DNA from: an uncultured Verrucomicrobiae bacterium
GTDB taxonomy: Bacteria; Verrucomicrobiota; Verrucomicrobiia; Chthoniobacterales; UBA10450
Direction: 5' to 3'
Assembly: GCA_963726745.1 (NCBI GenBank)
Contig: CAVSDR010000006.1
Location: forward strand, 544,001-608,000
DNA length: 64,000 bases
This document shows, one piece after another, positions 1 to 63,140 of the stretch (its first letter is position 1; the number at the start of each line of letters is the position of its first letter). The notes under the pieces are model-generated. The model was not told where the DNA came from. It saw only the letters and a list, made by a program, of their open reading frames with translations, and did no database searches. The position numbers were made by a program, and so were the translations under genes.

Positions 1-1067
1 TTAGGCCGGCGAAAGCCGGCGGTCGAGAGCGGCACGCGTTCGCCGATCCCGGCGCGGCGTTTCGCCACTTCGAACATGCTGGCTATTTGCTGCGCAAAGA
101 CGCCTTCGCCGGTCTGCCGCACGCCCCAGCGCGCGTCGTAGACCTTCCCGTCGCCGCCGCGCAAGTCGCGGATGCGGCCGAGGACTTTCTCCTTCCGCCC
201 GGGGAAGTGTTCCTCCAGCCAGCGCTCAAAAAGCGGCGCCACCGCCCAGGGCAACCGGAGCACGACATAGCCGGCAAACTTCGCCCCGGCCTCGCCGGAC
301 GCTTTCAAAATTGCCGGCACTTCGTGGTCGGTAATGCCCGGGATGATCGGCGCGACCATCACGCCGGCAGGCACGCCCGCGGCGTTCAATTGCGCGACCG
401 CCTCCAGCCGCGCTTCCGGCGAGGAGGTGCGCGGCTCGAGGATGCGCTGGAGCTTCCGGTCTAACGAGGTGATGGAAAGGTTGACCGCGATCGCCTGATG
501 TTCCGCCAGCCGGCGAAAGAGATCGAGGTCGCGCGTGACCAGCCGATTCTTGGTCACGATGCCGACCGGGTTGCGGAATTTAGCCAGCACTTCGAGGCAG
601 CGCCGGGTCAGCTCGAGCTTCCGCTCGATCGGCTGGTAGGGATCGGTCACGCCGCTCAGGACCACCGTCTGCGGCTTCCATTTTGGCGAGGAAAGCTCCG
701 CCTCGAGCAGCTCGGGCGCGCGCTCCTTGACCATGATCTTGCTTTCAAAATCGAGCCCGGCGGAGAAGCCGAGATACTCGTGCGTCGGCCGCGCGAAACA
801 GTAAGCGCAGCCATGCTCGCAGCCGCGGTATGGATTCACGCTCGTCTCGAAGCCAACGTCCGGACTCTGGTTGCGCGAGATGATTGTCTTCGTGCCGTCG
901 CGAAAAAATTGCGAACGCAACGGCGGCCGCTCCTCCTCGGCGCCCGGCTCCACTGGGTCGAGCTCGACCTGCAACGCCTCGAAACGATTGGCGATATTCG
1001 CCGAGGCGCCGCGGCCTTTCGCGGCCTGGGGCGCACTGGTGAACTCTGCGCGAACCGGACGAAACAT
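1..1067 (-). CDS. Radical SAM protein, PA0069/Rv2578c family (3' end runs off the window)
   Basis: Hand translation (not in ORF track): MFRPVRAEF...VNPYRGCEHGCAYCFARPTHEYLGFSAGLDFESKI (CxxxCxxC), SGVTDPYQPIE, ...STAGFRRP at the edge. Confidence 0.9.
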   Translation of the reverse strand, partial: MFRPVRAEFTSAPQAAKGRGASANIANRFEALQVELDPVEPGAEEERPPLRSQFFRDGTKTIISRNQSPDVGFETSVNPYRGCEHGCAYCFARPTHEYLGFSAGLDFESKIMVKERAPELLEAELSSPKWKPQTVVLSGVTDPYQPIERKLELTRRCLEVLAKFRNPVGIVTKNRLVTRDLDLFRRLAEHQAIAVNLSITSLDRKLQRILEPRTSSPEARLEAVAQLNAAGVPAGVMVAPIIPGITDHEVPAILKASGEAGAKFAGYVVLRLPWAVAPLFERWLEEHFPGRKEKVLGRIRDLRGGDGKVYDARWGVRQTGEGVFAQQIASMFEVAKRRAGIGERVPLSTAGFRRP

Positions 1068-1170
1068 CCCGTATGTTCAACTGAACGCACCACCCTGTCC
1101 AGCCGGCGGGGCAATGTTTTCCGCGCCCCGGAGTTGCCCGAAGCCCAAGTTCAACGGAGGGAAAAGAGTC

Positions 1171-2532
1171 ATGGCTAAAACCACCCCCGCCCGGAGCAAG
1201 GGATCCCTGAGCGTGCTCGCCCGGCGTTCGCCATTCACCCGCCAGGTGGTCTTGCCGGCGGAGAACTTCATCCACAGCGAATCGATCAGCGCGCTCTTCC
1301 TGCTCGCGGCCGCGATCATCGCCCTGGCTTGGGCGAACTCGCCCTGGGCGCACTCCTACTTCGGCCTGCTCGAGACCGTGATCACGGTGAAGGTCGGGCC
1401 GCTCGACATCACCGAGACGGTCCACCATTGGATCAACGATGGCCTGATGACGCTCTTCTTTTTCGTCGTCGCCCTGGAAATCAAGCGCGAGCTCGTGCGC
1501 GGCGAGCTTTCCTCAGTCAAAAAAGCCGCCCTGCCGCTGGCCGGCGCCTTCGGCGGCATGCTCGTGCCGGTGATCATTTTTCTTGGCTTTAACTACGGGA
1601 AGGCGGGCGCGCATGGCTGGGGCATTCCCATGGCGACCGACATCGCCTTCGCCCTCGGGGTGCTCGCGCTTCTCGGGAACCGCATTCCGTTTGCGCTGCG
1701 CGTGTTCCTCCTGGCTTACGCGATTGCCGACGACATCGGCGCGATCCTGGTGATCGCGGTTTTCTACACCAACCACATCTCATACGTCGCGCTCGCCTGG
1801 GGTGCGGCGATCATTTTCGCGATCCAATGCGCCCGCGTCGCCGGCGTGCGCGACATCCCGGTCTACATCATCCTCGGCGCGCTCCTCTGGGTGGCCGTGC
1901 TCGAGTCGGGCATCCACGCGACCATCGCCGGCGTGCTCCTTGGCTTCATGACTCCGGCGAGCGCCTGGTTCGGCGCGCGGGAATCCACCCAGCAGATTCA
2001 CGATGCGCTCCCGGGTCTGGAGGATTCGGTGCAACAAAAGGACTACCCGCGCACGCAGGCGATTCTCGGCGAACTGGAAGTGCTCACCCACCACACGGAA
2101 GCGCCGCTGGAGCGAATCGAGCGAATCATGCATCCGTGGACCAGCTTCCTGGTGTTGCCGATTTTCGCGCTCGCCAATGCCGGGGTCGCATTCTCCCCGG
2201 AGATGGCGCGCTCGGCTCTCTCCAGCCCGGTCACGCTCGGGATTGCCGCCGGCTTGCTCGTGGGAAAACTGTTTGGCCTAACGACCTTTTCCTGGCTGGC
2301 AGTGAAGCTGGGCGCGGCCTCGCTCCCGAATGGCGTCGGCTGGCGCCACATCTGGGGCACGGCTTTCCTCGGCGCGGTCGGCTTTACCGTCGCCATCTTC
2401 ATCAGCGGGCTGGCCTACGACGACGCCCGCATGGTCGACCAGGCCAAGATCGGCATCCTCGCGAGCTCACTCGTGGCCGCGGTCGTCGGCTGGCTTTTCC
2501 TGCGCTTCGCCGTGCCGCCCGCGCGGGAATAG
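1171..2532 (+). CDS. nhaA: Na+/H+ antiporter NhaA
   Basis: WINDGLMTLFFFVVALEIKRE, GWGIPMATDIAFALG, AIADDIGAI, GVGFT-like motif; ATG at 1171 preferred over the ORF start at 871. Confidence 0.95.
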   Translation: MAKTTPARSKGSLSVLARRSPFTRQVVLPAENFIHSESISALFLLAAAIIALAWANSPWAHSYFGLLETVITVKVGPLDITETVHHWINDGLMTLFFFVVALEIKRELVRGELSSVKKAALPLAGAFGGMLVPVIIFLGFNYGKAGAHGWGIPMATDIAFALGVLALLGNRIPFALRVFLLAYAIADDIGAILVIAVFYTNHISYVALAWGAAIIFAIQCARVAGVRDIPVYIILGALLWVAVLESGIHATIAGVLLGFMTPASAWFGARESTQQIHDALPGLEDSVQQKDYPRTQAILGELEVLTHHTEAPLERIERIMHPWTSFLVLPIFALANAGVAFSPEMARSALSSPVTLGIAAGLLVGKLFGLTTFSWLAVKLGAASLPNGVGWRHIWGTAFLGAVGFTVAIFISGLAYDDARMVDQAKIGILASSLVAAVVGWLFLRFAVPPARE

Positions 2533-2542: not shown

Positions 2543-3844
2543 CTACTCGAAACGGAGCGCCTTCACCGGGTCGAGCCGCGCCGCGAAATAGGCCGGGATC
2601 AACGCGGCTAACGAGCAGATGAGGAACGCGCCGATGCAGATTACGGCGACGTCGTGCGGCACCACCTCCGCGGGAATCTGCGAAAATTGGTAGACCTGCC
2701 GCGGGAAGACTTCGATTCCAAACGTGCCGGAAAGCCATTGGCTGAATTCGTTCCGGAAACGGATCAGCGTCATCCCCAAACCCAGCCCGCTCAGCGTGCC
2801 GAACACGCCCACGACCATGCCCTGCGCCAGGAAAACCCAGACGATTTGCCAGATGTTTGCGCCGATCGCCTTCATGATCCCGATCTCGCGCGTCTTCTGC
2901 ACGGTCACGGTGATGAGCGTGTTCATGATCCCGAACGCCGCCACGATGATGATGAAAAAAAGCAGGAAGAACATCACCGTGCGTTCGAGCCGCACGGCTT
3001 CGAAATACTGCGAGTTCATGTCGATCCAGGTCTGCGCGTATTCCGGCGGCTTGAGGAATTTCGTGATCGATTGCTTCACGCTTTCGGCCGCATACGGGTC
3101 GACCGTCTTGACCGTGATCCCGTGGAGCGCGTCCTCCAGCCCGTAGAGTTCCTGCCCCACGTGCACTGGCACGAGCAGGAACTCCGAGTCATGCAGGTAA
3201 TGCCCGGTCTCGAAGATGCCGGTAATCGTCAGCTCCTTCGGCAGAACGACGTCGCGCAGTTGGTCGAGCGCGGCCTTGTCCGCCGCCGCGTCTTTCGACT
3301 CCAGCTTCTTCAAGCCGTCCATGATCTGGCTGAGATTTCCCGGCGAATAGACCGTCAGCTTGTCGCCTACATCAATCTGGAGTTTGCGCGCCAGTTCCAC
3401 TCCCAGAATCGCGTTGTCCCCCTCGAGGTCGAGCTTTCCGCGAATGATAAATTTAGCCAGCGGGATGACCTTCTCTTCCTCCTCCGGATCAATCCCACGG
3501 ATCAACGGCGCCAGCCGGCGGCTCTCGAATTCCACGATCACCGGACCTTGCACGTAGGGCGCGGTCGCGACCACGCCCGGCGTGTTCCGGATTTTCACCG
3601 TCAGGTCGCGCCAATCGCTCAGCACATCCTGCGTGCTCACGAGGATGTGCGCGTCGAAGTCGATCACCTTCTGCCGCAGCTCCCGGTCAAAGCCGGTCAT
3701 GACCGCGATCACGAGGATGAGCACGGTCACGCCCAGCGTCACCCCAAGCACGGAGATGAGCGTGATGATGGAAACGAAAGTCCGCTTCGGCCGCAGGTAG
3801 CGCAGCGCGAGGAAGAGGCTGAATGGCAGTTTCAAGTCGCGCAT
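2543..3844 (-). CDS. Lipoprotein-releasing ABC transporter permease, LolC/LolE (FtsX-like) family
   Basis: ALRYLR...VIAVMTGFD N-terminus, KTREIGIMKAIGA, PAYFAARLDPVKALRFE C-terminus. Confidence 0.9.
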   Translation of the reverse strand: MRDLKLPFSLFLALRYLRPKRTFVSIITLISVLGVTLGVTVLILVIAVMTGFDRELRQKVIDFDAHILVSTQDVLSDWRDLTVKIRNTPGVVATAPYVQGPVIVEFESRRLAPLIRGIDPEEEEKVIPLAKFIIRGKLDLEGDNAILGVELARKLQIDVGDKLTVYSPGNLSQIMDGLKKLESKDAAADKAALDQLRDVVLPKELTITGIFETGHYLHDSEFLLVPVHVGQELYGLEDALHGITVKTVDPYAAESVKQSITKFLKPPEYAQTWIDMNSQYFEAVRLERTVMFFLLFFIIIVAAFGIMNTLITVTVQKTREIGIMKAIGANIWQIVWVFLAQGMVVGVFGTLSGLGLGMTLIRFRNEFSQWLSGTFGIEVFPRQVYQFSQIPAEVVPHDVAVICIGAFLICSLAALIPAYFAARLDPVKALRFE

Positions 3845-4400: not shown

Positions 4401-4914
4401 GTGGCCGCGCAAGAGATGATCGCATTCTGGCTGCTTCCGGCGCCGGCGGAGCGCGCGGTTTTCGCGGCGCTCATCCGCGACTTCGCGCAACGCTGCGACG
4501 GCCCGGTCTTTGAGCCGCATCTCACCCTCGGCGGCGGGGAGCTCGAGGTTAAATTAGCCAGCGAGATGTTCGCAAAACTGCTGCCAGCGGCGCCGTTGGC
4601 ACTGGAGATTGAGCAGATCGGCTGGAGCGCGGAATACACGAAAACGCTGTTCGTCGGGTTCCGCCGCACGGCCGCCGTGGATGCGCTCAGCCGCGCAAGC
4701 GGCGGCGGCGGCGAGGAGTTCCAGCCGCACCTCAGCCTGCTCTACGCGCATCTGCCGGCCGCCCGGAAAGCGGAATTAGCCAGCGAGATCTCCCTTCCCT
4801 TTCACCCGCGTCCACTTCAACGCCGCGCAGATGATTCGCACGGAATTTCCCCTAACGAGCGGTGCGCAAGTCGAAGCCTGGCAAACGCTCGCGACCGGTC
4901 CGCTTTCCGGATGA
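4401..4914 (+). CDS. 2H-family cyclic phosphodiesterase (CPDase-like); frameshift near 4800
   Basis: Two HxT/S motifs (FEPHLTL, FQPHLSLLY); C-terminus continues in another frame (TRVHFNAAQMIRTEFPLTSGAQVEAWQ...*). Start uncertain (4377/4401/4416). Confidence 0.75.
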
Positions 4915-4996: not shown

Positions 4997-6720
4997 ATGG
5001 ACGACATTGTGGGCATCGATCTCGGCACGACCAATTCGCTTATTGGTGTGATGGAAGCGGGCTTCCCGCTCCTGCTGGCGGATCGCGACGGGCGGCGGCT
5101 GACGCCTTCCGTGGTCCACTTTCCGAAGAGCGGCGCGCCGGTCGTGGGCCGCGCGGCGGAACGGATGCGCGTGCTCGACCCGGGGAACACGATCTACTCG
5201 ATCAAGCGCTTCATGGGCCTGCGCCCGGAGGAAATTTCCGCGACCGCGGCCGGCGTCGAATACTCGTTAGGCGAGCGCACGCCGGAAGAAATCTCCGCGC
5301 TCCTGCTCGCGAAATTGAAGGCGGACGCCGAGGCGGCGCTCGGGCGCAGCGTCAGCCGCGCGGTCATCACGGTGCCGGCGTATTTCAACGACGCCCAGCG
5401 CCAGGCGACGAAAACAGCCGGCGAATTGGCCGGCTTCACGGTCGAGCGAATCGTGAACGAACCAACCGCGGCCGCGCTGGCTTACGGTCTCGATAAACTC
5501 AAAAGCCGCGCAAAAATCGCGGTCTACGATTTTGGCGGCGGCACCTTCGACGTCTCGATCCTGGAGTTGAACCAAGGCCTCTTCGAGGTCCTCTCGACCA
5601 ACGGCAACACCCGTCTGGGCGGCGATGATATCGACCAGGCGCTCCTGGAGAAATTAGGCGACCAATCGAGCGCGCTGCGCGAAGCCGCGATCGCCGCGAA
5701 GCATCGTCTCTCGGAGGAGGAGACGGTCGCGATCGAGCTGCCGTTCCACCGCGGAACGGAGAGTTTTTCGCGCACGCTGACCCGCGCCGAACTGGAGGAA
5801 ATCGCGCGCCCGATCGTGGACCGCACCCGCGCGCATTGCCGCCGGGCGTTGGCCGACGCGAAGATTTCCGCCGGCGAACTCGACGAAGTCATCCTCGTCG
5901 GCGGAACCACGCGGATGCCGCTGGTGCAGCGGACGGTCGCAGGAAATTTTCGGCCGCGCGCCGAACCTTTCGCAGAATCCGGACGAAGCCGTCGCCCTCG
6001 GCGCGACCATTCAGGCCGGGATTCTCTCGGGCGCAATCAGCGACCTCGTGTTGCTCGACGTCACTCCGCTCTCGTTAGGCATCGAGACCTTCGGAGGATT
6101 AACCAGCGTGATCATCCCGCGGAATTCCACCATCCCGGTGAAAGCCGGCGAGATGTTTACCACCGCGGTGGCGAATCAGACGGCGATGCGGATCAAGGTC
6201 CTGCAAGGCGAGCGCGAGATGGCGCGGGACAACTGGCCGCTGGGCGAGATTCGAGCTCGAGTTCGCCCCGGCCCCGAAAGGCGTGGCCCGCGTGGGCGTG
6301 CAATTCGAGATCGACGCCAACGGCATCCTCCATGTGCTCGCGCGCGACACCCTCACTGGCCACGAGAAAACCGTGGAGATCAACAGTGCGGTCGATGTCT
6401 CCGACGAAGCGGTCGAGGCGATGCTGGCCGACTCCCTGGAACACGCTTTCGAGGACATGTCCGAGCGCGTCTGGACGGAGGCGAAACTGAAAGCCGACGA
6501 GTTGATCGCGGCGGTCGAGAGCGTTTTCGGAATTTTAGCCAGCGAGATCGACCCGGCGGAGAAGCAGCGGCTGGAGGAGTTGTTAGGCGAGGTGCGCACC
6601 GCCCTCGCCGCGGGGGAAGCGCAGCGCTTGAAGCGCGCCACGGCGACGCTCGACCAGGCAACCGAACCGCTGGCCGCGCGCCTGGTCGAGCGCGCGCTGG
6701 CCGCGGCTACGACTCGTTAG
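4997..6720 (+). CDS. Hsp70 family chaperone (DnaK/HscA-like); frameshifts near 5945 and 6250
   Basis: [72 protein letters not shown] spread over three frames. Confidence 0.9.
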
Positions 6721-8500
6721 GCGAAGCGGCCGGCGATGGGCTGGCCACGGGGGCGGCCACTTTAGCCAGCGCCTCGTCGAGGAGCTTCTTTTCCTCGAGG
6801 AAAAGCGGGCCCTTCTGCGCCGCCTCGAGATATTCCGCCGCCGCCGGCGGGTCGTTATTATCGAGATAAAGCAGGGCCACGTAGACCGCGGCATGCGGGT
6901 CGCGCAATTCCTCCTTGGGCAATTTGCCGACCACTTCCAGCGCCTCCGCAGTGCGGCCGGAGCTGTAGAGCGCAAAGGCATAGATGACTGCGGCGTGCGC
7001 ATCCTCCGGCGCGGCCTGGTAGGTCTCGCGCGCGACGCGCTGGGCTTCCTCGGTATTAGGAGCAAGCAGGAGCGCGAGGCGCGCGTAATTCCAAGCCAGC
7101 GGAAGCTCGCGCGGGGAACTTTCGTGCAGTTGCCGCGCGATCAGGAGGAGCTCCGGGAGATCGTTGGCGGCGCGGGCGTTGCGGTAGAGATTGTCGAGCG
7201 CTTCGCGACGCAGCGGCGGATTCCGGGCCACCCGCGTCCAGAGATTCTTCGCCTCCGCATTCAAATTCCAGCGACTGGCGAGCCGCGCGAGCGTGGCCTC
7301 GCGCTCGGGGGCGTCGGCAGCGGCCTTCTCGGCGGCGTGCCAAAGCGAATCGGCTTCCGCGCCCGCGCTCGCCTGCTGCGCCTGGCGGGCAGCGTAGGAT
7401 TGGTAGGCCAGCCGGAGAAATTCCGCATCGCCCCACTGGCCGCTGCGCGTCCAACGTTTTAAGCGGGACCAGTTTTTCAAGGCGGCGAAACTCTCCGCGA
7501 TCGCGACGGCCGCGGGCGGCTTCGCGGCCAGTTCGGGCGGCAATTTATCCGTCCACTTGAGCGCTTCCGCGGCGAGGCTGTTGCGGTTGAGCCACTCGAC
7601 CAGGGCGCCGACATCGGCCGGCGTGCGCGCCGCGACCGGCTTCACTTTTTCCAGGAGCGCGCTGAATTTTTTCTCGTCCAGCTTCCGGTAAAACTCGAGG
7701 CAGAGCAGGAGGTCGTTGAAGGTGACCTGCTGGGTCATCTGCAGGTCCTGCGCGAGACGGTCGGCGCGCTCGAGATCGTTTCGCTGGATGGCGTCGTTCA
7801 GAAGCGCGCGGATCGCGCCGGTGCGATAGCCAGCGACTTTGCTCAAACGCTCCAGCGTCTCGCGGGCGCGGGTGTTTTTCTCGGGATCAGGCGAACGCAC
7901 CTGGAGGACGGCGAGGTTGAACTGGTAGAGATCGTTGGCTGGTTCCTGCTGGACCGCGGCGGCGAAATGCTTCTCCAGTTCGCCATCGTTTCCCTGCGCG
8001 CGCGCCAGCCAGCCGGCGACAACATGGTAGGCCGCGCGGTCGCGCTCTTCCGGGCGCACGCGGTCGAGCGCGCGCGCGGCCACGTCGAGCTGACCAAAGC
8101 GCAGCGCGGCGGAGGCGAGGTTGAGCTGCGCCTCGGCATTGCCCGGCAGGATGCGCGCGATTTGCGCCCGCCAGGCGACCGTCTCGGCGCGGTTTTGCTT
8201 CTCCGTGGCGTCGGCTAAAATCTGGTAAGCCGGGAGCGACTCCGGCGAAACCCGGAGCATCTGGTGCGCGGCCCGGCTGGCGCCTTCGAGGTCGCCTTTT
8301 TCCTGCAGGGCAACGGCGCGTTGCAGCAGACGGCTTTGACGCCAGCCGGTGTAGGCGCGCGGCGCATAGGTGGTGAAAAGCAGGCCCAACCCCAAACCGG
8401 CGACGATCGCGAGCGCGTAAAGCAGGTAACGCGTGCGCGCGGCGAGAGCGTGTCGACTGCGCTTGCGTTTACGCCGAACGCGTCTGACCTCCTTTGCCAT
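6707..8500 (-). CDS. Membrane-anchored TPR-like helical protein
   Basis: Basic N-terminus plus one TM helix, then Ala-rich helical repeats ([23 protein letters not shown]); ATG at 8500. Confidence 0.7.
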
Positions 8501-8541: not shown

Positions 8542-9912
8542 CTAGGCGAGCGCTTCGCTTTTGGCCGGCTCCAGTTCCGGCGCCTCCTCCAGGATCTCCT
8601 CCACCTGCTCGCGCAAACGCGGGCCCCAAACATAGCGCGCCAGCAGCACCTTGATGGTGGCGGTTAAAGGCACCGCCAGGATCGGCCCGAGCAACCCGCC
8701 GATGAGCAAACCCCAGACGAAGATGGAGACGATCACGGTCATCGGATGGAGGCCGACGGAATTGCCGACAATCCGCGGGGCCACAAAGATGGCCTCGAGA
8801 TTTTGCACCCCGAAGAAGACCACGGTGATGAGCAGCGGATGCGTCCAATCGCCCCATTGCGCCGCGGCGATGAGGACCGCCGGCACCCAGCAAATCACGA
8901 TGCCGATGTAAGGGATCATGGTGAGCAGGACCACAAGCAAACCGATGAGCGGGGCGAAGTTTAGCCCAAGGAGCATGAGCGTGATGCCGATGAGGGTGCC
9001 GTCGACCAGGCAAACCAGGAGCTGCCCGCGAAAATAAGCGACGATGTAGCGATTGATTTGCCGAAGGACGGTCGCGACCTCGCTCTTAAACGGAGACGCG
9101 CGCAGCGGCAGGTATTCGGTCCAGTGCTCCTCGATCGCAGGCCGCTCCTTGAGCAGGAAAAAGAGATAGATCGGGACCATGATGAAGCTGAAAAGAAAGC
9201 CGGTGACGCCGAGAAAGCCGCCAATGCTGGTGCGCACGAGCGCCCAAACCTTCGCGGTCACGAGCGGAAGTTGATCCTGCAGATTCGGCAGCTGCTGCTC
9301 CACCCAGACCTGGATGCGCTCGCGCTCGGCGTTGCTGATGCGCGGCTGCGGCGGGCCGATGAAGTCGCTGGCAGCCGCCGAATCCTGAGCAGCGGGCTTG
9401 GCCTTTGGCCGGGGCGATGGCGAGGCCGCCGGCAGGAGCCAATCGACCAGGCTGGTGGCGACGGCATTGCGCGAGCTGCCGGCAAACGTGGTGTGGAAGA
9501 ATTGATTGTAACGAAAGATCAGGTCGACCGTGGAATCGCGCGCCTTGACCGTGTAAACGGGAAGCTCGCGCACGAAGGCGCCCGCCTGGAGCGAGACCGT
9601 GGGCACGAGCCAGCCCAAGAGCGCGACGAGCGCAAGGCCGGCGACGGCGAAGAGCAGCCAGATCGCCTTCGCCCGGCTCATCCGGCGACGGCTCAGGTGG
9701 GTGATCACCGGGTCGAGCAGATAGGCCAGGATCACGGCGATGGCTACCGGGATGAGGATTGGCTGGAGGAAACCAAGCAATCGCCCGAGCAACCAGACGC
9801 CGGAAGCGACGATGCCGACGAGCAGCACACCGAAGAGCGCCGAGAGCGCGGTCCACATGATCTTCCGCTGGGAGGCGGTGGGATACTGCGGCGACGATTC
9901 GTTAGGCGGCAT
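8542..9912 (-). CDS. AI-2E family transporter (PerM-like)
   Basis: LAYLLDPVI, YFRGQLLV, IPYIG, PRIVGNSVGLHP...GGLLGPILAVP. Confidence 0.9.
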   Translation of the reverse strand: MPPNESSPQYPTASQRKIMWTALSALFGVLLVGIVASGVWLLGRLLGFLQPILIPVAIAVILAYLLDPVITHLSRRRMSRAKAIWLLFAVAGLALVALLGWLVPTVSLQAGAFVRELPVYTVKARDSTVDLIFRYNQFFHTTFAGSSRNAVATSLVDWLLPAASPSPRPKAKPAAQDSAAASDFIGPPQPRISNAERERIQVWVEQQLPNLQDQLPLVTAKVWALVRTSIGGFLGVTGFLFSFIMVPIYLFFLLKERPAIEEHWTEYLPLRASPFKSEVATVLRQINRYIVAYFRGQLLVCLVDGTLIGITLMLLGLNFAPLIGLLVVLLTMIPYIGIVICWVPAVLIAAAQWGDWTHPLLITVVFFGVQNLEAIFVAPRIVGNSVGLHPMTVIVSIFVWGLLIGGLLGPILAVPLTATIKVLLARYVWGPRLREQVEEILEEAPELEPAKSEALA

Positions 9913-15637: not shown

Positions 15638-15641
15638 AACG

Positions 15642-36818: not shown

Positions 36819-36825
36819 CCGCTCG

Positions 36826-45347: not shown

Positions 45348-45383
45348 CGAGTGCGAGACCGAACGGGTAATTCCAACGAGACA

Positions 45384-52440: not shown

Positions 52441-54204
52441 CTCCTCGATTCGCGCCCGCATCCGTTCCCCCGCGGCTGCCGGCGCCAGGAGCACGCGCAT
52501 TTCCTCCGCCGCGCGTTCACCGATCGCGCGCGCGGCCGCGCGATTCTGGAAGACCCAGCGCATCAGCCGCGCGGCGTGATCCTCACTCGGCTCCGCCCAG
52601 CGGTAGCCCTGCCGGTAAATCCCGCCGTCCTCCGCGATCGGCACCAACTCGTAATCCACCAGCAGGCTGTTCTGCGCGTTCATGAACGCGGTGTTTCCGG
52701 AGTAATTCGTCGCGATCACCGGCTTTCCGAGCAGCATCGCTTCCGCCAGCACCAGGCCGAAACCTTCCGAGCGATGGAGCGAGACCAGGCAATCAGCCAG
52801 CGAGATGTAACCGCAGGCCCGGGGGCGCGTGGTCACTTCATCGACGAGGACGATCTTCGCCGCGCCCGCTTCCTCGCGCAGCCGCGCGAGATTGGCCGCA
52901 TCGTAGGACCCACGGCTGACCTTGATCACGAGCGTGGCCGCATCCTCCGGCCCGAAGACGCGCTGGAAGGCGCGCACCACCGCGAGCGGATTCTTTCGGC
53001 GAAAGTCGCTCGCCATGTCGAAGAGAAACAGGAAGACAAACTCGCCCGGATCGAGCCCGAGCTCGGCGCGCGAGATTTCTTCCACCTCCGGCAGGGCCAC
53101 GGGCGGCAGGAGTTCGCGCACCGGCACGGTCAGCTGCGTGCGCAAGGCCTCGGCCACGAAAGGCGTCGGCGCCCAGACCTCGTCCAGTTCCTCTGCGAGC
53201 GGTGCCCACTCCGCTGGGATCGCATCCAGTTCCCAGGCCCAATACGCGATCTGCACCCGGGCGCGCCGCGGCAAGCCGGCGCGTTGGTAGCGCACGGCAA
53301 AATGCGGCTCCGGCGCGACGTTCGTGATCGTGACCGGGAAGTCCTCGAAGCCGAGATACGCGGTCCGCGGCGCCAATTCCGTGCGCACCCCGGTGGGCAC
53401 ATCTCGCCGGCTAATTTCGAAGCCCGCCGTCTCGAGGGCCGCGGCCGCCTCCACTGCCGCCTGGCGAATGCCCGAGCTGTAGCAAAAGTGGCTCAGGAAA
53501 TTCACCCCCGCCCGGTTGGCCGACGACTCGTTAGGCGCGAGCGGCGGGAGCGTTTTCACCGCGCGCAGCGGCGCGTATTTCGGAAATTCCGCGTGCAGCC
53601 ACGCGAGCAAGCCAGAGGCGTCCGTGCGCGCCTCGGGGAAGCGCTCCTGCCAGTCCGGCAGGATCAAATAGGTGAGCGCGATGTGCCGTGGGAGGTCCTC
53701 TGCGGTCGCGTGGAGAAACCAGAGAATCTCCTCGTCCGAGCAGCCATGTTCCGCGCGGCCTTTGCCCACGAGCCATTTTGCGAAGCGCTTCTGCCCCACT
53801 GGCAGGAGGCCCAACGGGTAACGCCACTGCACCTCCGGCGTGTGCAGGAAAAACTCGCGCAAGGCCGCGCCCGGGTCGGCGGGGAAAGCGCTGCCTAAAT
53901 TCGCCGCGGTGGAAGAGGGCAGCTTCAACTCCCGCGCGCCCTCGCCTTTCAACCATTCGCGGTAGGCCGGGTCGCCCACGACCGCGCGCGGAAAGCGTTT
54001 CCGCAAATCCGGCCGAGAGCGTAACAATCCGAGGAGAAAACGCGGAGCGGTCGCGGCGCTTCCAGCATCCGAGGGCGACCAGCGGCCGAAAGCCAGTCCG
54101 CGCGTGTCGACCAGCGCAGTCATGGTGCGCTCATGATAGATGTCGAAGAGGTCGGAGGGCGCTTCCGGGACCTCGGTGCGGCGGAGAAATTTGGGTAATC
54201 GCAT
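52402..54204 (-). CDS. Glycosyltransferase family 4 (GT-B)
   Basis: YWAWEL, DEVWAPTPFV, FDMAS..RRKNP, SLHRSEGFGLVLAEAMLLGKPVIATNYSGN. Confidence 0.88.
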   Translation of the reverse strand: MRLPKFLRRTEVPEAPSDLFDIYHERTMTALVDTRGLAFGRWSPSDAGSAATAPRFLLGLLRSRPDLRKRFPRAVVGDPAYREWLKGEGARELKLPSSTAANLGSAFPADPGAALREFFLHTPEVQWRYPLGLLPVGQKRFAKWLVGKGRAEHGCSDEEILWFLHATAEDLPRHIALTYLILPDWQERFPEARTDASGLLAWLHAEFPKYAPLRAVKTLPPLAPNESSANRAGVNFLSHFCYSSGIRQAAVEAAAALETAGFEISRRDVPTGVRTELAPRTAYLGFEDFPVTITNVAPEPHFAVRYQRAGLPRRARVQIAYWAWELDAIPAEWAPLAEELDEVWAPTPFVAEALRTQLTVPVRELLPPVALPEVEEISRAELGLDPGEFVFLFLFDMASDFRRKNPLAVVRAFQRVFGPEDAATLVIKVSRGSYDAANLARLREEAGAAKIVLVDEVTTRPRACGYISLADCLVSLHRSEGFGLVLAEAMLLGKPVIATNYSGNTAFMNAQNSLLVDYELVPIAEDGGIYRQGYRWAEPSEDHAARLMRWVFQNRAAARAIGERAAEEMRVLLAPAAAGERMRARIEELLAPGLDRGSAG

Positions 54205-54299: not shown

Positions 54300-54995
54300 G
54301 TGAATCGCATTTCCGCCTTCTCCAGTTCATCGATCGGGCGGAAATACATCGTCGCAGTGACCGGCCTCGTCCTGATCCTTTTCGTGGTCGGGCATCTTCT
54401 CGGCAATCTCCAGATTTTCCTTGGGCCGGATTGGATCAATAGCTATGCGGAGCACCTGCGCGCGCTCGGCCCGCTCCTTTGGGTCGTCCGCATCGGCCTG
54501 CTCGTGACCGTGGTCCTGCACATCTACTTTACCATCCGGCTGGCGATCGATAACCGGCGCGCCCGGCCGCAGCGTTACGTGCAAAAGGATTGCGTCAAAG
54601 CCACCTTCGCCTCGCGCTCGATGGCGCTCAGCGGGCTGGTGGTTTTAGCCTTCATTCTCTTCCACCTCGCGCATTTCACCGTGCGCGTGACCGATCCGCG
54701 CTTCGCCCTCCTGAAGAACGATCCGCTGAACCGCTACGACGTCTTTTCGATGATGGTTTACGGCTTCCAGAATTACTTCGTCTCCGGCTTTTACGTCCTC
54801 GGGCTCTTCCTGCTCACGCTCCACCTGACCCACGGCACCTCGAGTTTCTTCCAGTCGTTAGGCTTGAACGACAAGAAGCTGACCCCGCGGCTGGCCTGGG
54901 CCGGGCGCGTCGTCGCCTGGGCGATCTTTGTCGGCTACACCTCCATCCCGGTCGCGGTGCTGCTCGGGTTCATCAAGCCGGCGCAGCAATTATGA
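54300..54995 (+). CDS. sdhC: Succinate dehydrogenase cytochrome b subunit
   Basis: [31 protein letters not shown]; first gene of sdhCAB. Confidence 0.92.
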
Positions 54996-56921: not shown

Positions 56922-57691
56922 ACTTCAAACTCCGCGTTTGGCGCCAGAAAGTCGGCGAGCCGCAGGGCCGCCTGGCCGAATACGAGGCGCGCGATATTCC
57001 GCCGCACGCCTCTTTCCTCGAGATGCTCGACATCATCAACGAGGACCTGGTCACGAAAGGCGAAGACCCGATCGCCTTCGAGTCGGATTGCCGCGAAGGC
57101 ATTTGCGGAACTTGCAGCCTAACGATCAATGGCGAGGCTCATGGCCCGGACCATCCGGGTGCGGCCTGCCAGCTTTACATGCGGCGTTTTCGCGACGGCG
57201 AGACGATCACGGTGGAGCCATTCCGCGCGCGCGCCTTCAAAACCGTGCGCGATCTGGTGGTCAATCGCAGCGCGCTCGACCGTATCGTCCAGGCCGGCGG
57301 CTACATCTCAGCGCGGGCTGGTTCCGCGCCGGAAGCGAACTCCATCCCGGTGCCGAAACACGATGCCGACCTGGCCATGGAAGCGGCTGCCTGCATCGGT
57401 TGCGGCGCTTGCGCCGCGGCCTGTCCGAACGCCTCCGCGATGCTCTTCACCTCGGCCAAGGTTTCGCATCTCTCGTTGCTTCCGCAGGGCAAGCCGGAAC
57501 GCGACAAGCGGGTGATCAAGATGGTCCAACAAATGGACGCCGAAGGCTTCGGGAACTGCACCAACACTTATGAGTGCGAAGCGGTTTGCCCGGCCGAAAT
57601 CAGCGCCAGCTTCATCGCCAAGCTCAACCGCGAGTATGCCCGGGCGATGCTGCGAAGCTCGGCCGGGAGACTAGCGGCTGCTGGCGAATGA
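56918..57691 (+). CDS. sdhB: Succinate dehydrogenase iron-sulfur subunit
   Basis: [33 protein letters not shown]. Confidence 0.95.
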
Positions 57692-58522
57692 AGTCTCGCA
57701 CGGCGTGCGTCCAGAGTTCCGGGTCGAGCTCCGCACGGGCGCGCTCGGCTAACGAGTCGCTCTCGGCTCCGTCGCGCAACACCGCCATCATGGTCGCGCC
57801 GGAACCCGACATCATCGCCGACGCCCACTTCCGGTTGCGCCCGGAGCCAGCGCTTCATCTCCGCGAGGAAGACGTATTTCTCGAAGACCGGACGCTCGAG
57901 ATCATTCACGAAGGTGATTCCGCCAAACTCCTGCGGCGCGGTAATCGATTCCCGCTCAGTTCACGCGAATCGCGCCAGCGGCTGTAAGCCCAGGGCGTGG
58001 GCACGCCGAACTCCGGCTTAAGCAGGAGCAGCCGGAAATTAGCCGGCAACTTCACCGGCTCGACCTGCTCCCCGCGCCCGCGGCACCGCGCCGCCGAGCG
58101 AAAGAGGAAGAACGGCACATCGGAGCCCAGCTCCGCGGCCATCTCCGTCAATTTCTCGTTAGGCAGACCGGCTTCGCAAAAGCTCATTCAAGCCCAGCAG
58201 CGTGCTCGCGGCGTCGCTGCTCCCGCCGCCGAGCCCGGCGCCGTGCGGGATGCGTTTCTCCAGATGGATCTTCACCCCGCCGCGTGAGCGGAAAAAGCCG
58301 CGCCGCGCGGACGACAAGATTATCCTCGCCCGTGGAAAGCGAGGGGTCGTCGCAGGTGAATTCAAGGCCGCTCGCGGTCCGCTCAAGCGTGAGCCTGTCG
58401 AAAAGCGAGACCGGCGCCATCAGCGTCTCGATTTCGTGAAAGCCATCGTCGCGCCGCCGCAAAATGCGGAAGGAAAGATTGACCTTCGCCGGCGCCCGAA
58501 GCTGCATAAGTTCGCCTTCCAT
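57624..58522 (-). CDS. ispE: 4-diphosphocytidyl-2-C-methyl-D-erythritol kinase; several frameshifts, 3' end uncertain
   Basis: [43 protein letters not shown] found in successive frames. Confidence 0.85.
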
Positions 58523-58527
58523 AACGA

Positions 58528-59962: not shown

Positions 59963-60988
59963 GTGGAAGTTTCCCTAGGGGCGCCCGCGGCCAAATCGTC
60001 TTCGTTAGGCCCATTGGCGCAGGTGGCGCGGGGCGTGCAAACGCAACTCGACGAGGTCGAGCGGCGGATCGCGCACCAGGCGGCTTTGTTCGACCCGGCG
60101 GTGGAAGGTTATGTGGCCTACGCGATCGGCGGGCGCGGCAAACGGCTCCGTCCTTTGCTTGCGCTTCTGAGCGGCGGGGCGACCGGCGGCGTCTCTTCGG
60201 CACATGTCGATCTCGCGGTCATCCTCGAGTTAATCCACATCGCCACCCTGGTGCACGACGACATCATGGATGAGGCGGAACGCCGCCGCGGCTTGCCGAC
60301 GGTGAACGCGCGCTGGGGGAACGCGCTCAGCGTCCTGTTAGGCGACTGCCTTTTCGCGCACGCGCTAAGTTTGGCGACGCAATTCGAGAAGGCCGACGTG
60401 AGCCGCGCGATCGCGGATGCCGCGCGCGAAGTTTGCACGGGCGAAATCATCCAGACGCAACGCCGCTTCGACCTGCATCTCGCGATCGAGGAATACCGCC
60501 GGATCGTGGAGATGAAGACCGGTTCGCTCTTCATGGCTGCAGCGCAGCTCGGGGCGGTCTTGAACGACGCCGACGAAGCGACTGTGCAGGCGTTGAAAGA
60601 TTTTGGGATGAAGGTGGGCACGGCCTACCAGATCTACGATGACTGCCTCGACATCGCCGGCGACGAAGCGGTGATCGGCAAGACGCTCGGGACCGACCTG
60701 CGCAAAGGGAAATTGACGCTGCCGGTGCTCATCCTCCTGCGGACCGCGCCGGTAGTGGAGCGCGAGCGTTACGCGAAAATGATCGTGGACGGGAAGGTCG
60801 ACGAGGTCACCGCGGTTCTCACCGCCGGGCTCGCAGGCACGCCGATCGGCGAGTCGATCGACGCCGGGCTGGCCTTGATTCGCGAAGCGCAAGACGGGCT
60901 GGCCATCCTCCAGCCGGGCAGCCACGCGGAGGCGCTCGGGCAATTTTGCGAGACGCTGCGCGATCTCTTCGAGCAACTGCGGGGCTGA
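59963..60988 (+). CDS. Polyprenyl diphosphate synthase
   Basis: GKRLRP, LVHDDIMDEAERRRG, KTGSLF, YQIYDDCLD, GTDLRKGKLTLP; start uncertain. Confidence 0.92.
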   Translation: MEVSLGAPAAKSSSLGPLAQVARGVQTQLDEVERRIAHQAALFDPAVEGYVAYAIGGRGKRLRPLLALLSGGATGGVSSAHVDLAVILELIHIATLVHDDIMDEAERRRGLPTVNARWGNALSVLLGDCLFAHALSLATQFEKADVSRAIADAAREVCTGEIIQTQRRFDLHLAIEEYRRIVEMKTGSLFMAAAQLGAVLNDADEATVQALKDFGMKVGTAYQIYDDCLDIAGDEAVIGKTLGTDLRKGKLTLPVLILLRTAPVVERERYAKMIVDGKVDEVTAVLTAGLAGTPIGESIDAGLALIREAQDGLAILQPGSHAEALGQFCETLRDLFEQLRG

Positions 60989-61683
60989 TGTCGCCGCTTA
61001 AAATCCGCGAGCTGCCGGAGGACGAACGTCCCCGGGAAAAAATGCTCGCGCTGGGCCCGGCGGCGCTCAATGAAGCGGAGTTGATCGCAATTCTTCTGCG
61101 CACCGGAGTGCCGGGCGCGAATGCGGTCGAGGTCGCGCGCCAACTGCTGGCCCGCTTTACTTCGCTGGCCACGCTGAGCCGCTGCGGGGTCGAGGAACTG
61201 GCGGTAATCAAGGGCATCGGCGCGGCCAAGGCAATGCATCTGGTCGCCGCTTTCCAGCTGGGCCAGCGCCTGGCGAAGGAAACGCTCAAAAACGAGAAGC
61301 TGGAAACACCGGAGCAAATCTACCATCTCCTCGGAAACGAAATGCGCAGCCTGCACAAGGAATCGCTCCGCGTCCTCTTGCTCGATACCCGTTACCGGCT
61401 TCTACGCATGGAGGAGGTCTCGTTAGGCAGCATCAACGAAAGCATCGCGCACCCGCGCGACGTCTTCCGCCCGGCAGTCATCTTCTCGGCTTTTGCCGTC
61501 ATCGTGGTGCACAATCATCCCTCCGGCGATCCTTCGCCCAGCCAGGCCGACCACAGCCTCACCCGGCGCCTGGCGGAGGCCGCACAGCTTTTGCAGATCC
61601 GGCTGCTCGATCACCTGATCATTGGCGCACCATCTGAAGGGCGGCTGCCCTATTTCAGCTTCAAGGAGGCGGGCGTGCTTTGA
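60988..61683 (+). CDS. radC: RadC family JAB-domain protein
   Basis: ERPREKM, ELIAILLRTG, HPRDVF, HNHPSGDPSPSQAD, LLDHLII. Confidence 0.95.
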   Translation: MSPLKIRELPEDERPREKMLALGPAALNEAELIAILLRTGVPGANAVEVARQLLARFTSLATLSRCGVEELAVIKGIGAAKAMHLVAAFQLGQRLAKETLKNEKLETPEQIYHLLGNEMRSLHKESLRVLLLDTRYRLLRMEEVSLGSINESIAHPRDVFRPAVIFSAFAVIVVHNHPSGDPSPSQADHSLTRRLAEAAQLLQIRLLDHLIIGAPSEGRLPYFSFKEAGVL

Positions 61684-62482
61684 AAATTCATCCGACGGCG
61701 GTGGTTGATCCCGGTGCGAAATTAGACAGCGAGATCGAGATCGGCCCGTATTGCGTGCTCGGGGCCGGCGCGGTTGTCGGCGCGGGCTGCGTCCTGCAGT
61801 CGCATGTCGTCCTCGAGGGATGGTGCACCTGGGGGAGAACAACCGATTCGGACCCGGGACGGTCATTGGCGGCTGGCCGCAGGACTTGAGCTTTCAGCCA
61901 TCCACGCACAGCCGGGTGGAGATCGGGCGGAACAATGTTTTCCGCGAGCATTGCACAATTCATCGCGGGACCGCGGAGGGGAGCGCGACGACCATCGGCA
62001 ACGACAATTTCCTCATGGCCGGGGCGCACGTGGGCCACAATTGCCGGATCGGCGATGGCGTGATTATCGCGAACAATTGCCTGCTTGCCGGCTACGTGCA
62101 GATCGATGACCGCGCTTTCCTCGGCGGGGGTTCGACCTTCCATCAATTCATGCGCGTGGGCCGATTGGTGATGGTGCAGGGCAGCTCGGCGTTCGGGAAA
62201 GACATCCCGCCGTTCCTGCTCGCGGCGGAACGGAATTACGTCTTCGGCTTGAACGTGCTCGGGCTGCGGCGTGCGGGTTTCAAGGCGGAGGAGCGCGAGG
62301 AAATCAAGCGTGCCTTTAAGCTGCTTTACCGCAGCGGGCTGAATCTCCAGCAGGCGCTGGCGCAGGCCGCGGCGACGGAGTTCGGGCCAGTCGGCCGGGA
62401 GTTTTTTGAGTTCGTGGCGCAGGCGAAAAAGCGCGGGATTGTCCCCTACCGGCACGCGGACGAAGCGCGGCCTAACGAGTAA
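61680..62482 (+). CDS. lpxA: Acyl-ACP--UDP-N-acetylglucosamine O-acyltransferase; frameshift near 61820
   Basis: MKIHPTAVVD, IGGWPQDL, REHCTIHRGT, HVGHNC, HQFMRVG, GLNVLGLRRAGF. Confidence 0.92.
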
Positions 62483-63140
62483 GCGCGAGGAGCGCGAGCA
62501 TCCGGCCCGTGCGGCCTTTTTCGGCCCGGTAGGAATAATAGCCGGCAAGATCACAGGCGGTGCAGACGCCGTCGTCGTGCACTTTTCCCACGCCGCACGC
62601 GCGGAGGCTGCGGACGATCTCAGCCGCGAAATCGATCTCGTAATGCGGTGGCCGAATGCACGGGCTGAGCTGCGCCACCAGATCGGCCGGCCGCGCGCCG
62701 AAGCGGGCGCACATCAGCTCAACCGCGCGCGGCGCGATCCCAAGCTCTGTCCCTTTTTTGCCGGAATGCACCAGCCCGATGGCGTGCTGGACCGGATCGA
62801 CCAGGTAAACTGCGCAGCAATCGGCCACGTAAATCCCAAGACAAACGTCTGGCTGATTCGTGACCAGCCCGTCGCAATCTTCAAAGCAGAAGTCGTCGGC
62901 TAACGACTGATCGACCACCGCAACTTCGGCCCCATGCACCTGGCGCGCGGTGATGAAAGGCCGGCCCGCCATGCCAATGGCCCCGCGGATTTCGCGATGG
63001 ACCGCATCCAGCCGCCGCAGCGCCTCGTCCTTGTCCGCGCGCACGTCGATCTCCGGAACGCGCCGAGTAAAGGCGTGCGCAATTCCTGGCAGGGCGCGGA
63101 GCGCGGGGAATTGTTCCGCTGGAAGCGCGGCCAGGCTCAC
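62472..63140 (-). CDS. YfiH/PgeF-family (polyphenol oxidase/laccase-domain) protein
   Basis: QVHGAEV, CDGLVTN, VADCCAVYL, HSG..G, CTAC...YYSYRAEKGRTGRM. Confidence 0.88.
   Translation of the reverse strand: MSLAALPAEQFPALRALPGIAHAFTRRVPEIDVRADKDEALRRLDAVHREIRGAIGMAGRPFITARQVHGAEVAVVDQSLADDFCFEDCDGLVTNQPDVCLGIYVADCCAVYLVDPVQHAIGLVHSGKKGTELGIAPRAVELMCARFGARPADLVAQLSPCIRPPHYEIDFAAEIVRSLRACGVGKVHDDGVCTACDLAGYYSYRAEKGRTGRMLALLALTR

Follow-up and report, generated by a model that had tools for sequence, protein, structure and literature searches.

The window analysed here is a 64-kb stretch from the genome of an uncultured soil bacterium of the Verrucomicrobia (G000:C6:544001-608000; the genome, G000, comprises 3.41 Mb on seven contigs, with 63.6% G+C, and is 94.7% complete). 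It contains unrelated housekeeping genes (Hsp70-like, bcp, a nitrilase-type hydrolase, a hybrid kinase, a GHMP kinase, mnmA, secA, a phosphoribosyltransferase, a GT4 glycosyltransferase and radC), and all of these bear one ten-letter word, CTCGTTAGGC. Throughout one uncultured soil family, this nine-to-ten-letter word is repeated hundreds to thousands of times per genome, on both strands and in every readable frame, and we tentatively interpret it as a tag of self DNA. A first-pass annotation of the window had reported 21 exact copies, 15 on the plus and six on the minus strand, and our count returned the same copies at the same positions (Table 1). In 100 dinucleotide-preserving shuffles of the window, the word occurred 0.06 +/- 0.24 times and no shuffle reached 21. 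Allowing up to one mismatch gave 43 window sites compared with 3.6 in shuffles. The near-copies thus number 22, fewer than the roughly 30 estimated earlier, while all those named were present (GTCGTTAGGC at 41659, 50748 and 54854; TTCGTTAGGC at 9898 and 60001; CTTGTTAGGC at 55495 and 58869, and on the minus strand at 27449, 28918 and 30342). The seven-letter core TCGTTAG occurred 42 times where 2.7 were expected. The G+C content behind the earlier estimate, about 66%, was close to the 60-66% found along the window.

The suspicion that the word is iterated genome-wide was borne out. CTCGTTAGGC has 820 copies in G000 (375 on the plus and 445 on the minus strand), or one per 4.1 kb, and is found on all seven contigs at 0.16-0.40 per kb. 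It is the most frequent 10-mer of the genome despite containing TTA, and exceeds the order-0 and order-3 Markov expectations of 7.7 and 6.1 by 107- to 134-fold. Counts of its sub-words stay high (TCGTTAG 2025, TCGTTAGG 1514, TCGTTAGGC 1312), from which we infer a tight core. Anchored logos gave 5'-W-N-N-A-[C>G,T]-T-C-G-T-T-A-G-G-C-3', in which TCGTTAG(GC) is constrained and the flanks are weaker, with information content near zero outside these 14 positions. As first noticed in the window, an A often precedes the word (321 of the 820 copies). Substitutions are tolerated at the ends of CTCGTTAGGC (G in 237 and T in 226 copies at position 1, C in 166 at position 9, G in 99 at position 10), and T at position 3 occurs in 93 copies; the core positions are nearly invariant, with 0-28 copies per variant. 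The word is asymmetric, differing from its own reverse complement, and a direct reading shows no palindrome of 4 bp or more within it.

The excess falls steeply away from the exact word. For TCGTTAGGC, observed-to-expected ratios were 54 with no mismatch and 1.61, 0.67 and 0.86 with one, two and three mismatches, while the reversed control word gave 2.4, 1.8, 1.4 and 1.2. The 21 one-step neighbours of TCGTTAG together occurred 3674 times against 4452 expected. Only TTGTTAG, the C-to-T product at the CpG of the word, was enriched (162 versus 46, 3.5-fold), and the other 20 were at or below expectation. The next most frequent long k-mers of the genome belong to a hexamer tandem repeat (unit GTTGGC, about 142-146 overlapping 12- to 14-mers) and to a repeat of unit GGAGTC.

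We then considered how the word is read in genes. Frames in the window were assigned by a local coding-potential classifier, while genes of the whole genome came from a home-made crude caller (2523 calls, 82% of the genome); Pfam checks on the window showed that this caller misses or mis-frames some genes, and the genome-wide frame counts are approximate. In the window, ten copies are read in sense as Ser-Leu-Gly, including those assigned earlier to Hsp70, bcp, thrB, mnmA, pyrE and radC. Two are read antisense as Pro-Asn-Glu (16916 and 53527), and the two others proposed for this frame (26603 and 58155) belong instead to the seven copies at gene ends or between gene calls. Both Leu-Thr (CTA ACG) readings, in secA and an ArnT-like open reading frame (ORF), proved to be antisense, and an Arg-stop reading was recovered at 16174, where the word supplies a TAG stop. 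Genome-wide, copies within called genes use four stop-free frames: sense Ser-Leu-Gly (323), sense Leu-Val-Arg (50), antisense Pro-Asn-Glu (119) and antisense Leu-Thr-Ser/Arg (97). The local coding-potential classifier, independent of these gene calls, gave 323, 37, 106 and 89 for the same frames and left 265 of the 820 copies unclassified. About two thirds of copies lie within coding sequence, the coding fraction being 68% at word sites and 71% at random sites. The core is 1.6 times denser in short intergenic spacers than in genes (0.85 versus 0.52 per kb).

The first-pass annotation had placed the constraint on the DNA rather than on the protein, and codon-preserving controls agree. Shuffling synonymous codons within each gene left 8.3 +/- 2.4 copies (maximum 14 in 30 shuffles) of the 593 observed, and shuffling codon order left 1.6. 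TCG-TTA-GGC encodes 413 of 715 Ser-Leu-Gly tripeptides where 0.55% is expected, and CCT-AAC-GAG encodes 140 of 229 Pro-Asn-Glu tripeptides. The imposed codons are rare, as had been supposed: TTA makes up 2.9% and CTA 1.3% of leucine codons, and 614 of the 2832 TTA codons stand inside TCG-TTA-G. Considering that Ser-Leu-Gly itself is inflated (715 versus 403-540 for its five permutations), the word reshapes the proteome as well as codon usage. Flank preferences were equal at confidently coding (n=1116) and likely non-coding (n=582) sites, so that the flanks are a property of the DNA signal rather than of the codons around it.

We next determined how far the word extends among related genomes. 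The family tallies include unpublished genomes (G001 and G008 among 24 rows; G048, G052 and G059 among 81 rows), and dropping them alters no conclusion. The 10-mer exceeded its reversed control in all 24 congeneric genomes (51-1549 copies), compared with 0-14 copies in sixteen genomes of other families. These counts first suggested a trait of one genus only, an idea dropped once the core was found to be enriched family-wide. The ratio of core to control word ranged from 0.25 to 38 (median 2.87) in 81 family genomes from 36 genera, and had a median of 0.13 and a maximum of 0.39 in 56 genomes of 15 sister families, so that 79 of the 81 lie above every sister-family genome. The densest, G095, carries one core per 675 bp. 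Density varies continuously among genera and is structured by genus (intraclass correlation 0.82 over the 21 genera with two or more genomes); word density is thus a lineage trait. A further 80 related loci (1.25 Mb, labelled Chthoniobacterales, Candidatus Udaeobacter, Spartobacteria or Verrucomicrobia) contained 442 cores against 158 control words. Confinement to one contig, a worry raised earlier, is contradicted by the seven contigs and by more than 100 independently assembled relatives. In addition, near-identical soil-metagenome contigs of runs X1 and X2 cover the copy at 12397, with no difference listed within the word. Three soil-metagenome runs of one study share 0.13, 0.06 and 0.00 of the window stretch, and no RNA run is listed for it.

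The flanks vary more than the core. In a 367-kb sample of G095, the word takes the form A-[C/T]-TCGTTAGGC, with a stricter 3' GC and a more degenerate first position; at this first flank position, G000 has C while G095 has either C or T. A low-count congener (G002) was considered as the bearer of a different dialect, and this was rejected: its 254-kb sample contained no alternative word and the same word at 16-fold.

Turnover was followed in codon alignments of 12 window genes from up to 14 species, one genome per species; congeners are 69-78% identical to G000 at the nucleotide level in this region. Of 27 core sites, 20 were found in one species only. Other sites are widely shared in the raw counts. 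The L-S-L-G-I site of the Hsp70-like gene has the core in 8/14 species, counting the frameshifted G000 copy at 6071, and an A-S-L-G-A site in ORF 16178-17314 has it in 6/8. In SecA (67 sequences, of which two with internal stops were removed), the remaining 65 genes held seven core sites with 32 occurrences, and a G-L-T-x site (window 48868-48874) had the core in 21 species including G000. Several gains required amino-acid changes: for example, bcp of G024 went from D-S-P-E/G-S to D-S-L-G-S, G000 and G044 from V-S-L-E-D to V-S-L-G-D, and G011 and G013 from L-S-V-G-T to L-S-L-G-A. Since most sites are restricted to single species and some are widely shared across the aligned genes, the alignments indicate that the word is both gained independently and kept for long periods, against codon preference.

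Placement along the chromosome is not random. With sites re-placed within 100-kb blocks as the null, TCGTTAG pairs closer than 200 bp were scarce (108 versus 229.5 expected, z about -5 in each of three bins) and pairs at 400-1600 bp were in excess (1026 versus 813). Distances of 3.2-6.4 kb were again fewer than expected (199 versus 252), and those above 12.8 kb more frequent (7 versus 1.3). Pairs of the word closer than 150 bp numbered 37 where 98 were expected, and in G000 these close pairs form no hairpins. The longest word-free stretch is a 35-kb O-antigen/polysaccharide island with 58-61% G+C (C7:60-95 kb). Other gaps coincide with an exosortase/exopolysaccharide/autotransporter locus (C3:2.8-25 kb) and with two loci of giant secreted proteins (C6:655-702 kb), while two more hold ordinary genes (C3:1115-1133 kb and C6:818-835 kb); core and accessory regions were told apart here by the gene content of the gaps.

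Close pairs in the G095 sample (loci L093-L112) have an anatomy of their own. Below 60 bp they are mostly direct (43 in the same and 18 in opposite orientation), and four are 7-bp tandem overlaps of the core, which hints that local duplication or slippage is one route by which copies arise.

Considering these results, we suggest that the word is a self-DNA tag of the kind represented by DNA uptake sequences (DUS), uptake signal sequences (USS) and highly iterated palindrome 1 (HIP1), acting in uptake or transformation. We rank this reading first and give it somewhat less than an even chance. In this model, 5'-W-N-N-A-C-TCGTTAG-G-C-3' (core TCGTTAGGC) would be a genome-wide 'self' tag, read as double-stranded DNA by a sequence-specific machine conserved in the family, most likely the DNA-uptake or transformation apparatus. 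Fragments bearing the word would have the advantage in binding and import, or in recombination. Alleles gaining the word would spread through the population by molecular drive and those losing it would be replaced, and the word would thereby be written into tolerant positions of the core genome, namely Ser-Leu-Gly, Pro-Asn-Glu, Leu-Thr and Leu-Val-Arg codon strings and intergenic spacers. Its upkeep would be by drive rather than by selection on each site. Because close pairs are in deficit, we favour one copy serving a stretch of DNA over a purely local mutational or repair bias, and it is this deficit, together with the features shared with DUS and USS, that places the uptake reading first.

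These shared features are numerous. DUS, a 12-mer with a 10-mer core bound by the minor pilin ComP in Neisseriaceae, and USS of Pasteurellaceae are together termed DUES; they are described as uptake sequences of just these two families, with about half of the copies in terminators (bioRxiv 10.1101/2025.10.24.684340). Like DUES, the word is short and non-palindromic, equally distributed over the strands, present roughly once per 0.6-4 kb, and independent of frame, with codon and peptide usage shifted by it. The sharp fall from zero to one mismatch (54 to 1.61) resembles that of the known sequences, where 92- and 82-fold drops are given for uptake sequences and USS has 1471 perfect against 764 one-mismatch copies (PMC1939737). 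Core-genome bias with absence from recently acquired or diversifying loci, and non-random spacing near 1 kb, recall DUS, for which core-genome bias and a spacing matching conversion tracts are reported (PMC2397512). Restriction to a family, with density and flanks differing between genera, is likewise a shared property (PMC3630211 for DUS and USS differences between genera). The statistical anatomy of the word thus fits an uptake sequence, one of the alternatives named by the first-pass annotation.

The expected machinery is also present, as in DUES-bearing bacteria. G000 encodes ComEC (an 849-aa frame), a ComEA-like HHH_3 protein and DprA, along with three secretins, ten T2SSE ATPases and 18 prepilin-type proteins. 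Uptake genes are widespread in the control genomes too, and therefore permit uptake without showing it. As correlates of density, ComEC and secretin are uninformative, being near-universal in the family. Two weak ComP matches (C3:432284 and C4:323062) are generic pseudopilins. A minor-pilin operon (C3:1032975-1034820) was considered as a conserved receptor and set aside, since matches to its first gene are weak in other genera of the family (E of 1e-4 to 1e-11) and equally weak outside; fast pilin divergence could hide the orthology of this gene.

Three minor observations concern pilin and comEC genes. G000 has three tandem paralogues of a small major-pilin-like gene (132, 131 and 134 aa; C5:155144-158683), the middle of which diverges in frame after about residue 85 and is probably frameshifted. 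In the family genome G051 (g21), whose word density is modest (ratio 2.7), ComEC (C9:459447-460251) was matched in two pieces with an in-frame TGA and may be disrupted. Two same-orientation copies of the word stand 101 bp apart at C6:232431-232540 in G000, about 330 bp from a Competence-domain match and within the span of the 849-aa comEC frame, probably by coincidence.

Several results weigh against an uptake tag. ComEC is found in 78/81 and secretins in 80/81 family genomes regardless of density, so that uptake genes do not track the word. ComP_DUS (PF16732) stayed below cut-off in G000, with a best score of 21.9 against 27.3 bits that covered only the generic N-terminal part of pilins, and a minor pilin considered as a candidate shows poor conservation even among members of the family. 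The 37 close pairs show no preference for inverted arrangement (12 +-, 10 --, 9 ++, 6 -+), and there is no terminator placement, with 1.00 cores per kb in convergent, 0.85 in divergent and 0.81 in tandem spacers. G095, the densest genome, avoids short range only weakly and has 55 close direct pairs below 50 bp where 42.5 are expected. The frame counts depend on a crude caller that misses some genes. A literature search that left subscription journals outside its coverage found no report of natural transformation in this family, and no description of the word, as the first-pass annotation had supposed, or of sequence-specific uptake in the phylum. Unlike DUES, the word belongs to a different phylum and is unrelated in sequence, its 9-bp core is constant across 36 genera where Neisseriaceae have several core dialects, and its uptake bias is a prediction. 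Four points keep us from ranking the uptake reading higher: the lack of the ComP family and of a placement in terminators, the indifference of uptake genes to density, the fact that uptake itself is what we infer, and two phage-like contigs and an orphan methyltransferase that fit a reader inside the cell at least as well.

The phage-like contigs came from IMG/VR, which was scanned with one 14-mer. Of 46 loci found, 45 had a single chance-level copy, and one (L237) had five copies of the 9-mer in 11.7 kb and encodes a terminase-like protein and a methyltransferase. The same contig (as L245; IMGVR_UViG_3300049984_000018) has eight cores in 20.6 kb, or 0.39 per kb. A second contig (L260; IMGVR_UViG_3300044812_000039, 1553-22851), with a terminase 46% identical and a ParB-like gene, has 17 cores in 21.3 kb, or 0.8 per kb, of which 13 are on one strand, opposite to the genes. 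Of the 59 loci whose terminases are related, the remaining 57 contain 0-2 cores. Host-like density of the word is thus seen in at least two mobile elements, which presumably belong to these hosts, and a reader inside the cell accounts for this more readily than uptake does.

The orphan methyltransferase is a beta-class N6/N4 enzyme and the sole PF01555 member of G000 (C3:981068-982039; locus L198:1252-2226, plus strand). Its neighbours are DUF1353, a YhaM-like HD protein and SodC, with no adjacent restriction gene. It is single-copy in 76/81 family genomes at 58-77% identity, and in five genomes its ORF, unbroken, includes an additional segment near residue 175. Among solved structures, the enzyme is closest to CcrM and to two unnamed methyltransferases (8urk, 9c3u), and it resembles a housekeeping methylase of the CcrM or Dam style. 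A C5 methyltransferase (C5:212447-214066) was rejected as a partner of the word, being sporadic (20/81) and not found in four word-rich g19 genomes.

It is possible, if doubtful on balance, that the tag is read inside the cell. It could be a HIP1-like site connected with the orphan methyltransferase, a site of a nucleoid or repair protein, or a non-polar signal that protects DNA from, or loads, a nuclease or recombinase which spares or favours 'self', and it would be kept by selection on many sites rather than by uptake drive and copied by resident phages. Besides the two phage-like contigs among mostly word-poor relatives and the indifference of density to uptake genes, this would suit the regular spacing, which is also that of a binding-site array, and the contrast between the near-universal methyltransferase of the family and its close homologues in only 6/56 outgroup genomes. 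HIP1 (GCGATCGC) of cyanobacteria is a precedent, as a hyper-abundant word that is 15- to 300-fold over-represented, conserved within and between ORFs, quasi-periodic, devoid of a gene-level role, present over a large clade with exceptions and tied to orphan methyltransferases (PMC5861425, PMC13756078, bioRxiv 10.1101/2024.09.10.611283). The word is like HIP1 in its 54- to 134-fold excess and regular spacing, and some of its sites are shared between species. A link to modification may exist, by way of the near-universal methyltransferase. In contrast, HIP1 is palindromic and contains the methylases' own sites, while our word is asymmetric and has no known link to a methyltransferase target. The word is not enriched in the six outgroup genomes that encode a close homologue of the enzyme, and density does not follow the state of the enzyme: the median ratio is 2.87 where the gene is in one piece (n=63) and 3.21 where no match was found (n=5), and the ratio is 14.3 in G108, where the gene is in pieces. 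No Vsr family member was found in the search, and the C5 methylase is too sporadic to help. Known nucleoid and segregation sites, for their part, number tens to hundreds and are mostly palindromic or polar. HIP1 periods are reported as 10-90 kb, and the period seen here is 0.4-1.6 kb. HIP1 itself is now proposed to aid transformation (PMC13756078), which partly merges the intracellular alternative with the uptake reading, and by analogy the two may converge. In Campylobacter jejuni, the transformation machinery recognises a methylated short motif written by a conserved methyltransferase (PMC8468864), and a comparable two-part scheme of word and orphan methylase is conceivable here.

Viewed against all three models, the word would work like DUS, USS or HIP1 while differing from each in the features specific to it. 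The C. jejuni motif, for its part, is a short degenerate palindrome that is not known to be hyper-abundant, unlike the long and hugely enriched word. An unlikely alternative is a 'self' mark of an undescribed kind, in which an intracellular machine reads an asymmetric 9-10 bp tag in either orientation. Such a machine could be a regulator of nuclease or recombination activity by which tagged DNA is spared or favoured, perhaps in concert with the orphan methyltransferase, and resident phages would copy the tag to pass as self.

Readings without a dedicated self tag fare worse. The word might be neutral, left behind by a mutation or repair bias with sequence specificity (for instance very-short-patch-like correction or biased gene conversion), and have neither a function nor a reader other than the repair enzyme. 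This would agree with the continuous density among genera, with the word in phage-like contigs and with the enrichment of TTGTTAG, which could reflect a cycle of deamination and correction. We consider it improbable: Vsr, again, was not found, a purely local bias predicts no close-pair deficit, the 50- to 130-fold excess extends over 9-10 positions, creating the word costs multi-base amino-acid replacements, and sites are retained over deep divergence despite rare codons (21/65 in SecA, 8/14 in the Hsp70-like gene and 6/8 at the third site, at 69-78% identity). Chi, the KOPS sites that guide FtsK and the AIMS sites of chromosome organisation are, like the word, short asymmetric sequences over-represented genome-wide, Chi also being a mark of 'self', and the density of Chi in Escherichia coli is close to the one per 4.1 kb seen for the 10-mer. 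A polar chromosome signal of this type, either a Chi-like helicase-nuclease site or a KOPS/AIMS-like site, might also account for the mild strand bias on the contigs of uniformly negative GC skew (C3, C4 and C6; 288 copies on the plus and 345 on the minus strand) and for the 13 of 17 cores on one strand in L260. Yet known polar signals have a strong replication-strand skew and require RecBCD, AddAB or FtsK-gamma. Strand bias in G000 followed GC skew only at r=-0.17 over 50-kb bins, in a genome whose weak skew makes this a coarse test, and the 54:46 split is, we judge, within reach of gene-orientation bias. RecC was not found in the 94.7% complete genome, nor was any PDDEXK protein of AddAB size, the sole PDDEXK_1 match being a 470-aa ORF. 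Chi and KOPS are moreover enriched only a few-fold, far below the excess of the word. The segregation-type signal that the first-pass annotation had also entertained is therefore unsupported, because strand skew is lacking and the word is spread genome-wide, and we regard a polar function as very improbable. Least credible of all, and close to negligible, is a remnant of a mobile or repetitive element (a repetitive extragenic palindrome, REP; a miniature inverted-repeat transposable element, MITE; or an insertion-sequence end) or an assembly or binning artefact. What might suggest it is that an exact short sequence recurs so often, that G095 has a few direct pairs in tandem at distances of 7-22 bp, and that the copies form one cluster in G000. 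REP and MITE units are extended or palindromic and mostly intergenic, whereas the copies carry no information or flank homology beyond about 14 bp, lie mostly in coding sequence and stand in frame inside unrelated conserved genes; more than 100 independent assemblies have the word, and one copy recurs in soil contigs of other runs. Whatever probability these readings leave falls to something that we have not considered.

Only two bacterial families are documented to take up DNA sequence-specifically, and both belong to the Proteobacteria and live mostly in association with hosts. The word described here has all the statistical hallmarks of an uptake tag and is fixed in 36 or more genera of a soil family that is uncultured and includes relatives labelled Candidatus Udaeobacter, and is unusual in lacking a ComP-like receptor over cut-off and a terminator association. 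If it serves as a tag for uptake or transformation, such systems would have arisen independently for a third time, and a dominant group of soil bacteria would exchange DNA by self-selective transformation. The word on donor DNA would then be a practical handle for genetics in a group without genetic tools, and the genomes of the family, with densities of about 0.3 to 38 times control, would form a natural series in which phylogenetic correlation could lead to the reader. A reader inside the cell would instead point to an undescribed genome-wide DNA-reading system shared with phages. A 'self' mark of the undescribed kind would add a third principle beside uptake receptors (DUS/USS) and polar Chi recognition, in the family with the most abundant soil Verrucomicrobia.

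Table 1. Exact copies of the word and further occurrences of its core in the 64-kb window (positions are those of the window).
Feature	Position	Strand	Context
Exact CTCGTTAGGC	5263..5272	+	Hsp70/DnaK-like gene, sense, Y-S-L-G-E
Exact copy	6071..6080	+	same Hsp70-like gene, sense, L-S-L-G-I; aligned site has core in 7/13 relatives
Exact copy	6713..6722	+	3' end of TPR gene (6707-9013, -); low coding score
Exact copy	12397..12406	-	bcp (AhpC/TSA), sense, V-S-L-G-D; mostly V-S-L-E-D in other species
Exact copy	15330..15339	+	ORF 14851-15783, sense, L-S-L-G-T (best local coding frame)
Exact copy	16174..16183	+	convergent-ORF boundary; TAG of the word is the stop of the ORF ending 16181
Exact copy	16916..16925	+	antisense in ORF 16178-17314 (-), A-P-N-E-W
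Exact copy	19149..19158	+	antisense in PMT/ArnT-like ORF 19004-19768 (-), R-L-T-R; weak coding score
Exact copy	20710..20719	+	carbon-nitrogen hydrolase gene, sense, H-S-L-G-I
Exact copy	25978..25987	+	PAS/histidine-kinase/receiver gene 22136-26161, sense, R-S-L-G-A
Exact copy	26603..26612	-	between called genes (26491-26948); low coding score
Exact copy	30960..30969	-	gene boundary downstream of LigD prim-pol gene; low coding score
Exact copy	34719..34728	-	GHMP-kinase (thrB-like) gene, sense, V-S-L-G-Q
Exact copy	36822..36831	+	just past ORF 36534-36818; spanned by no open frame
Exact copy	42588..42597	-	mnmA, sense, H-S-L-G-I
Exact copy	48867..48876	+	antisense in secA, G-L-T-S-E (CTA ACG); core at aligned site in 21/65 SecA genes
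Exact copy	52107..52116	+	phosphoribosyltransferase (pyrE-like) gene, sense, R-S-L-G-K
Exact copy	53527..53536	+	antisense in GT4 glycosyltransferase gene, A-P-N-E-S
Exact copy	58155..58164	+	between sdhB-like and pyrF genes (57691-58528); low coding score
Exact copy	61419..61428	+	radC, sense, V-S-L-G-S
Exact copy	62470..62479	-	junction of lpxA-like ORF (to 62482, +) and Cu-oxidase_4 ORF (from 62472, -)
Core TCGTTAG	461..467	-	variant CTCGTTAGAC
Core TCGTTAG	2278..2284	-	variant GTCGTTAGGC
Core TCGTTAG	2608..2614	-	variant CTCGTTAGCC
Core TCGTTAG	4852..4858	-	variant CTCGTTAGGG
Core TCGTTAG	9899..9905	+	variant TTCGTTAGGC
Core TCGTTAG	15777..15783	+	at least 2 flank differences
Core TCGTTAG	17074..17080	-	variant CTCGTTAGGG; aligned A-S-L-G-A site has core in 6/8 species
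Core TCGTTAG	19096..19102	-	variant CTCGTTAGCC
Core TCGTTAG	31452..31458	-	variant CTCGTTAGGT
Core TCGTTAG	32599..32605	-	at least 2 flank differences
Core TCGTTAG	33897..33903	+	at least 2 flank differences
Core TCGTTAG	41660..41666	+	variant GTCGTTAGGC
Core TCGTTAG	44679..44685	-	at least 2 flank differences
Core TCGTTAG	45344..45350	-	variant CTCGTTAGTC
Core TCGTTAG	47114..47120	+	at least 2 flank differences
Core TCGTTAG	50749..50755	+	variant GTCGTTAGGC, in secA
Core TCGTTAG	54855..54861	+	variant GTCGTTAGGC
Core TCGTTAG	57119..57125	-	variant ATCGTTAGGC
Core TCGTTAG	57749..57755	-	variant CTCGTTAGCC
Core TCGTTAG	60002..60008	+	variant TTCGTTAGGC
Core TCGTTAG	62900..62906	-	at least 2 flank differences

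Frame breaks split several conserved genes of the window, namely the Hsp70-like gene (about 5940-5956 and 6250-6278), secA (near 50868) and the sdhA-like gene (56070-56245), the last being broken into two overlapping ORFs. The Hsp70 protein of a relative matches three different frames of the window, and SecA matches two. Frameshifts as a sequencing error linked to the motif were rejected, as neither the Hsp70-like gene nor secA is broken at a copy of the word. One base is missing at 5940 in X1, a near-identical soil contig, and because of this difference at least the break there looks like an assembly indel rather than a pseudogene.

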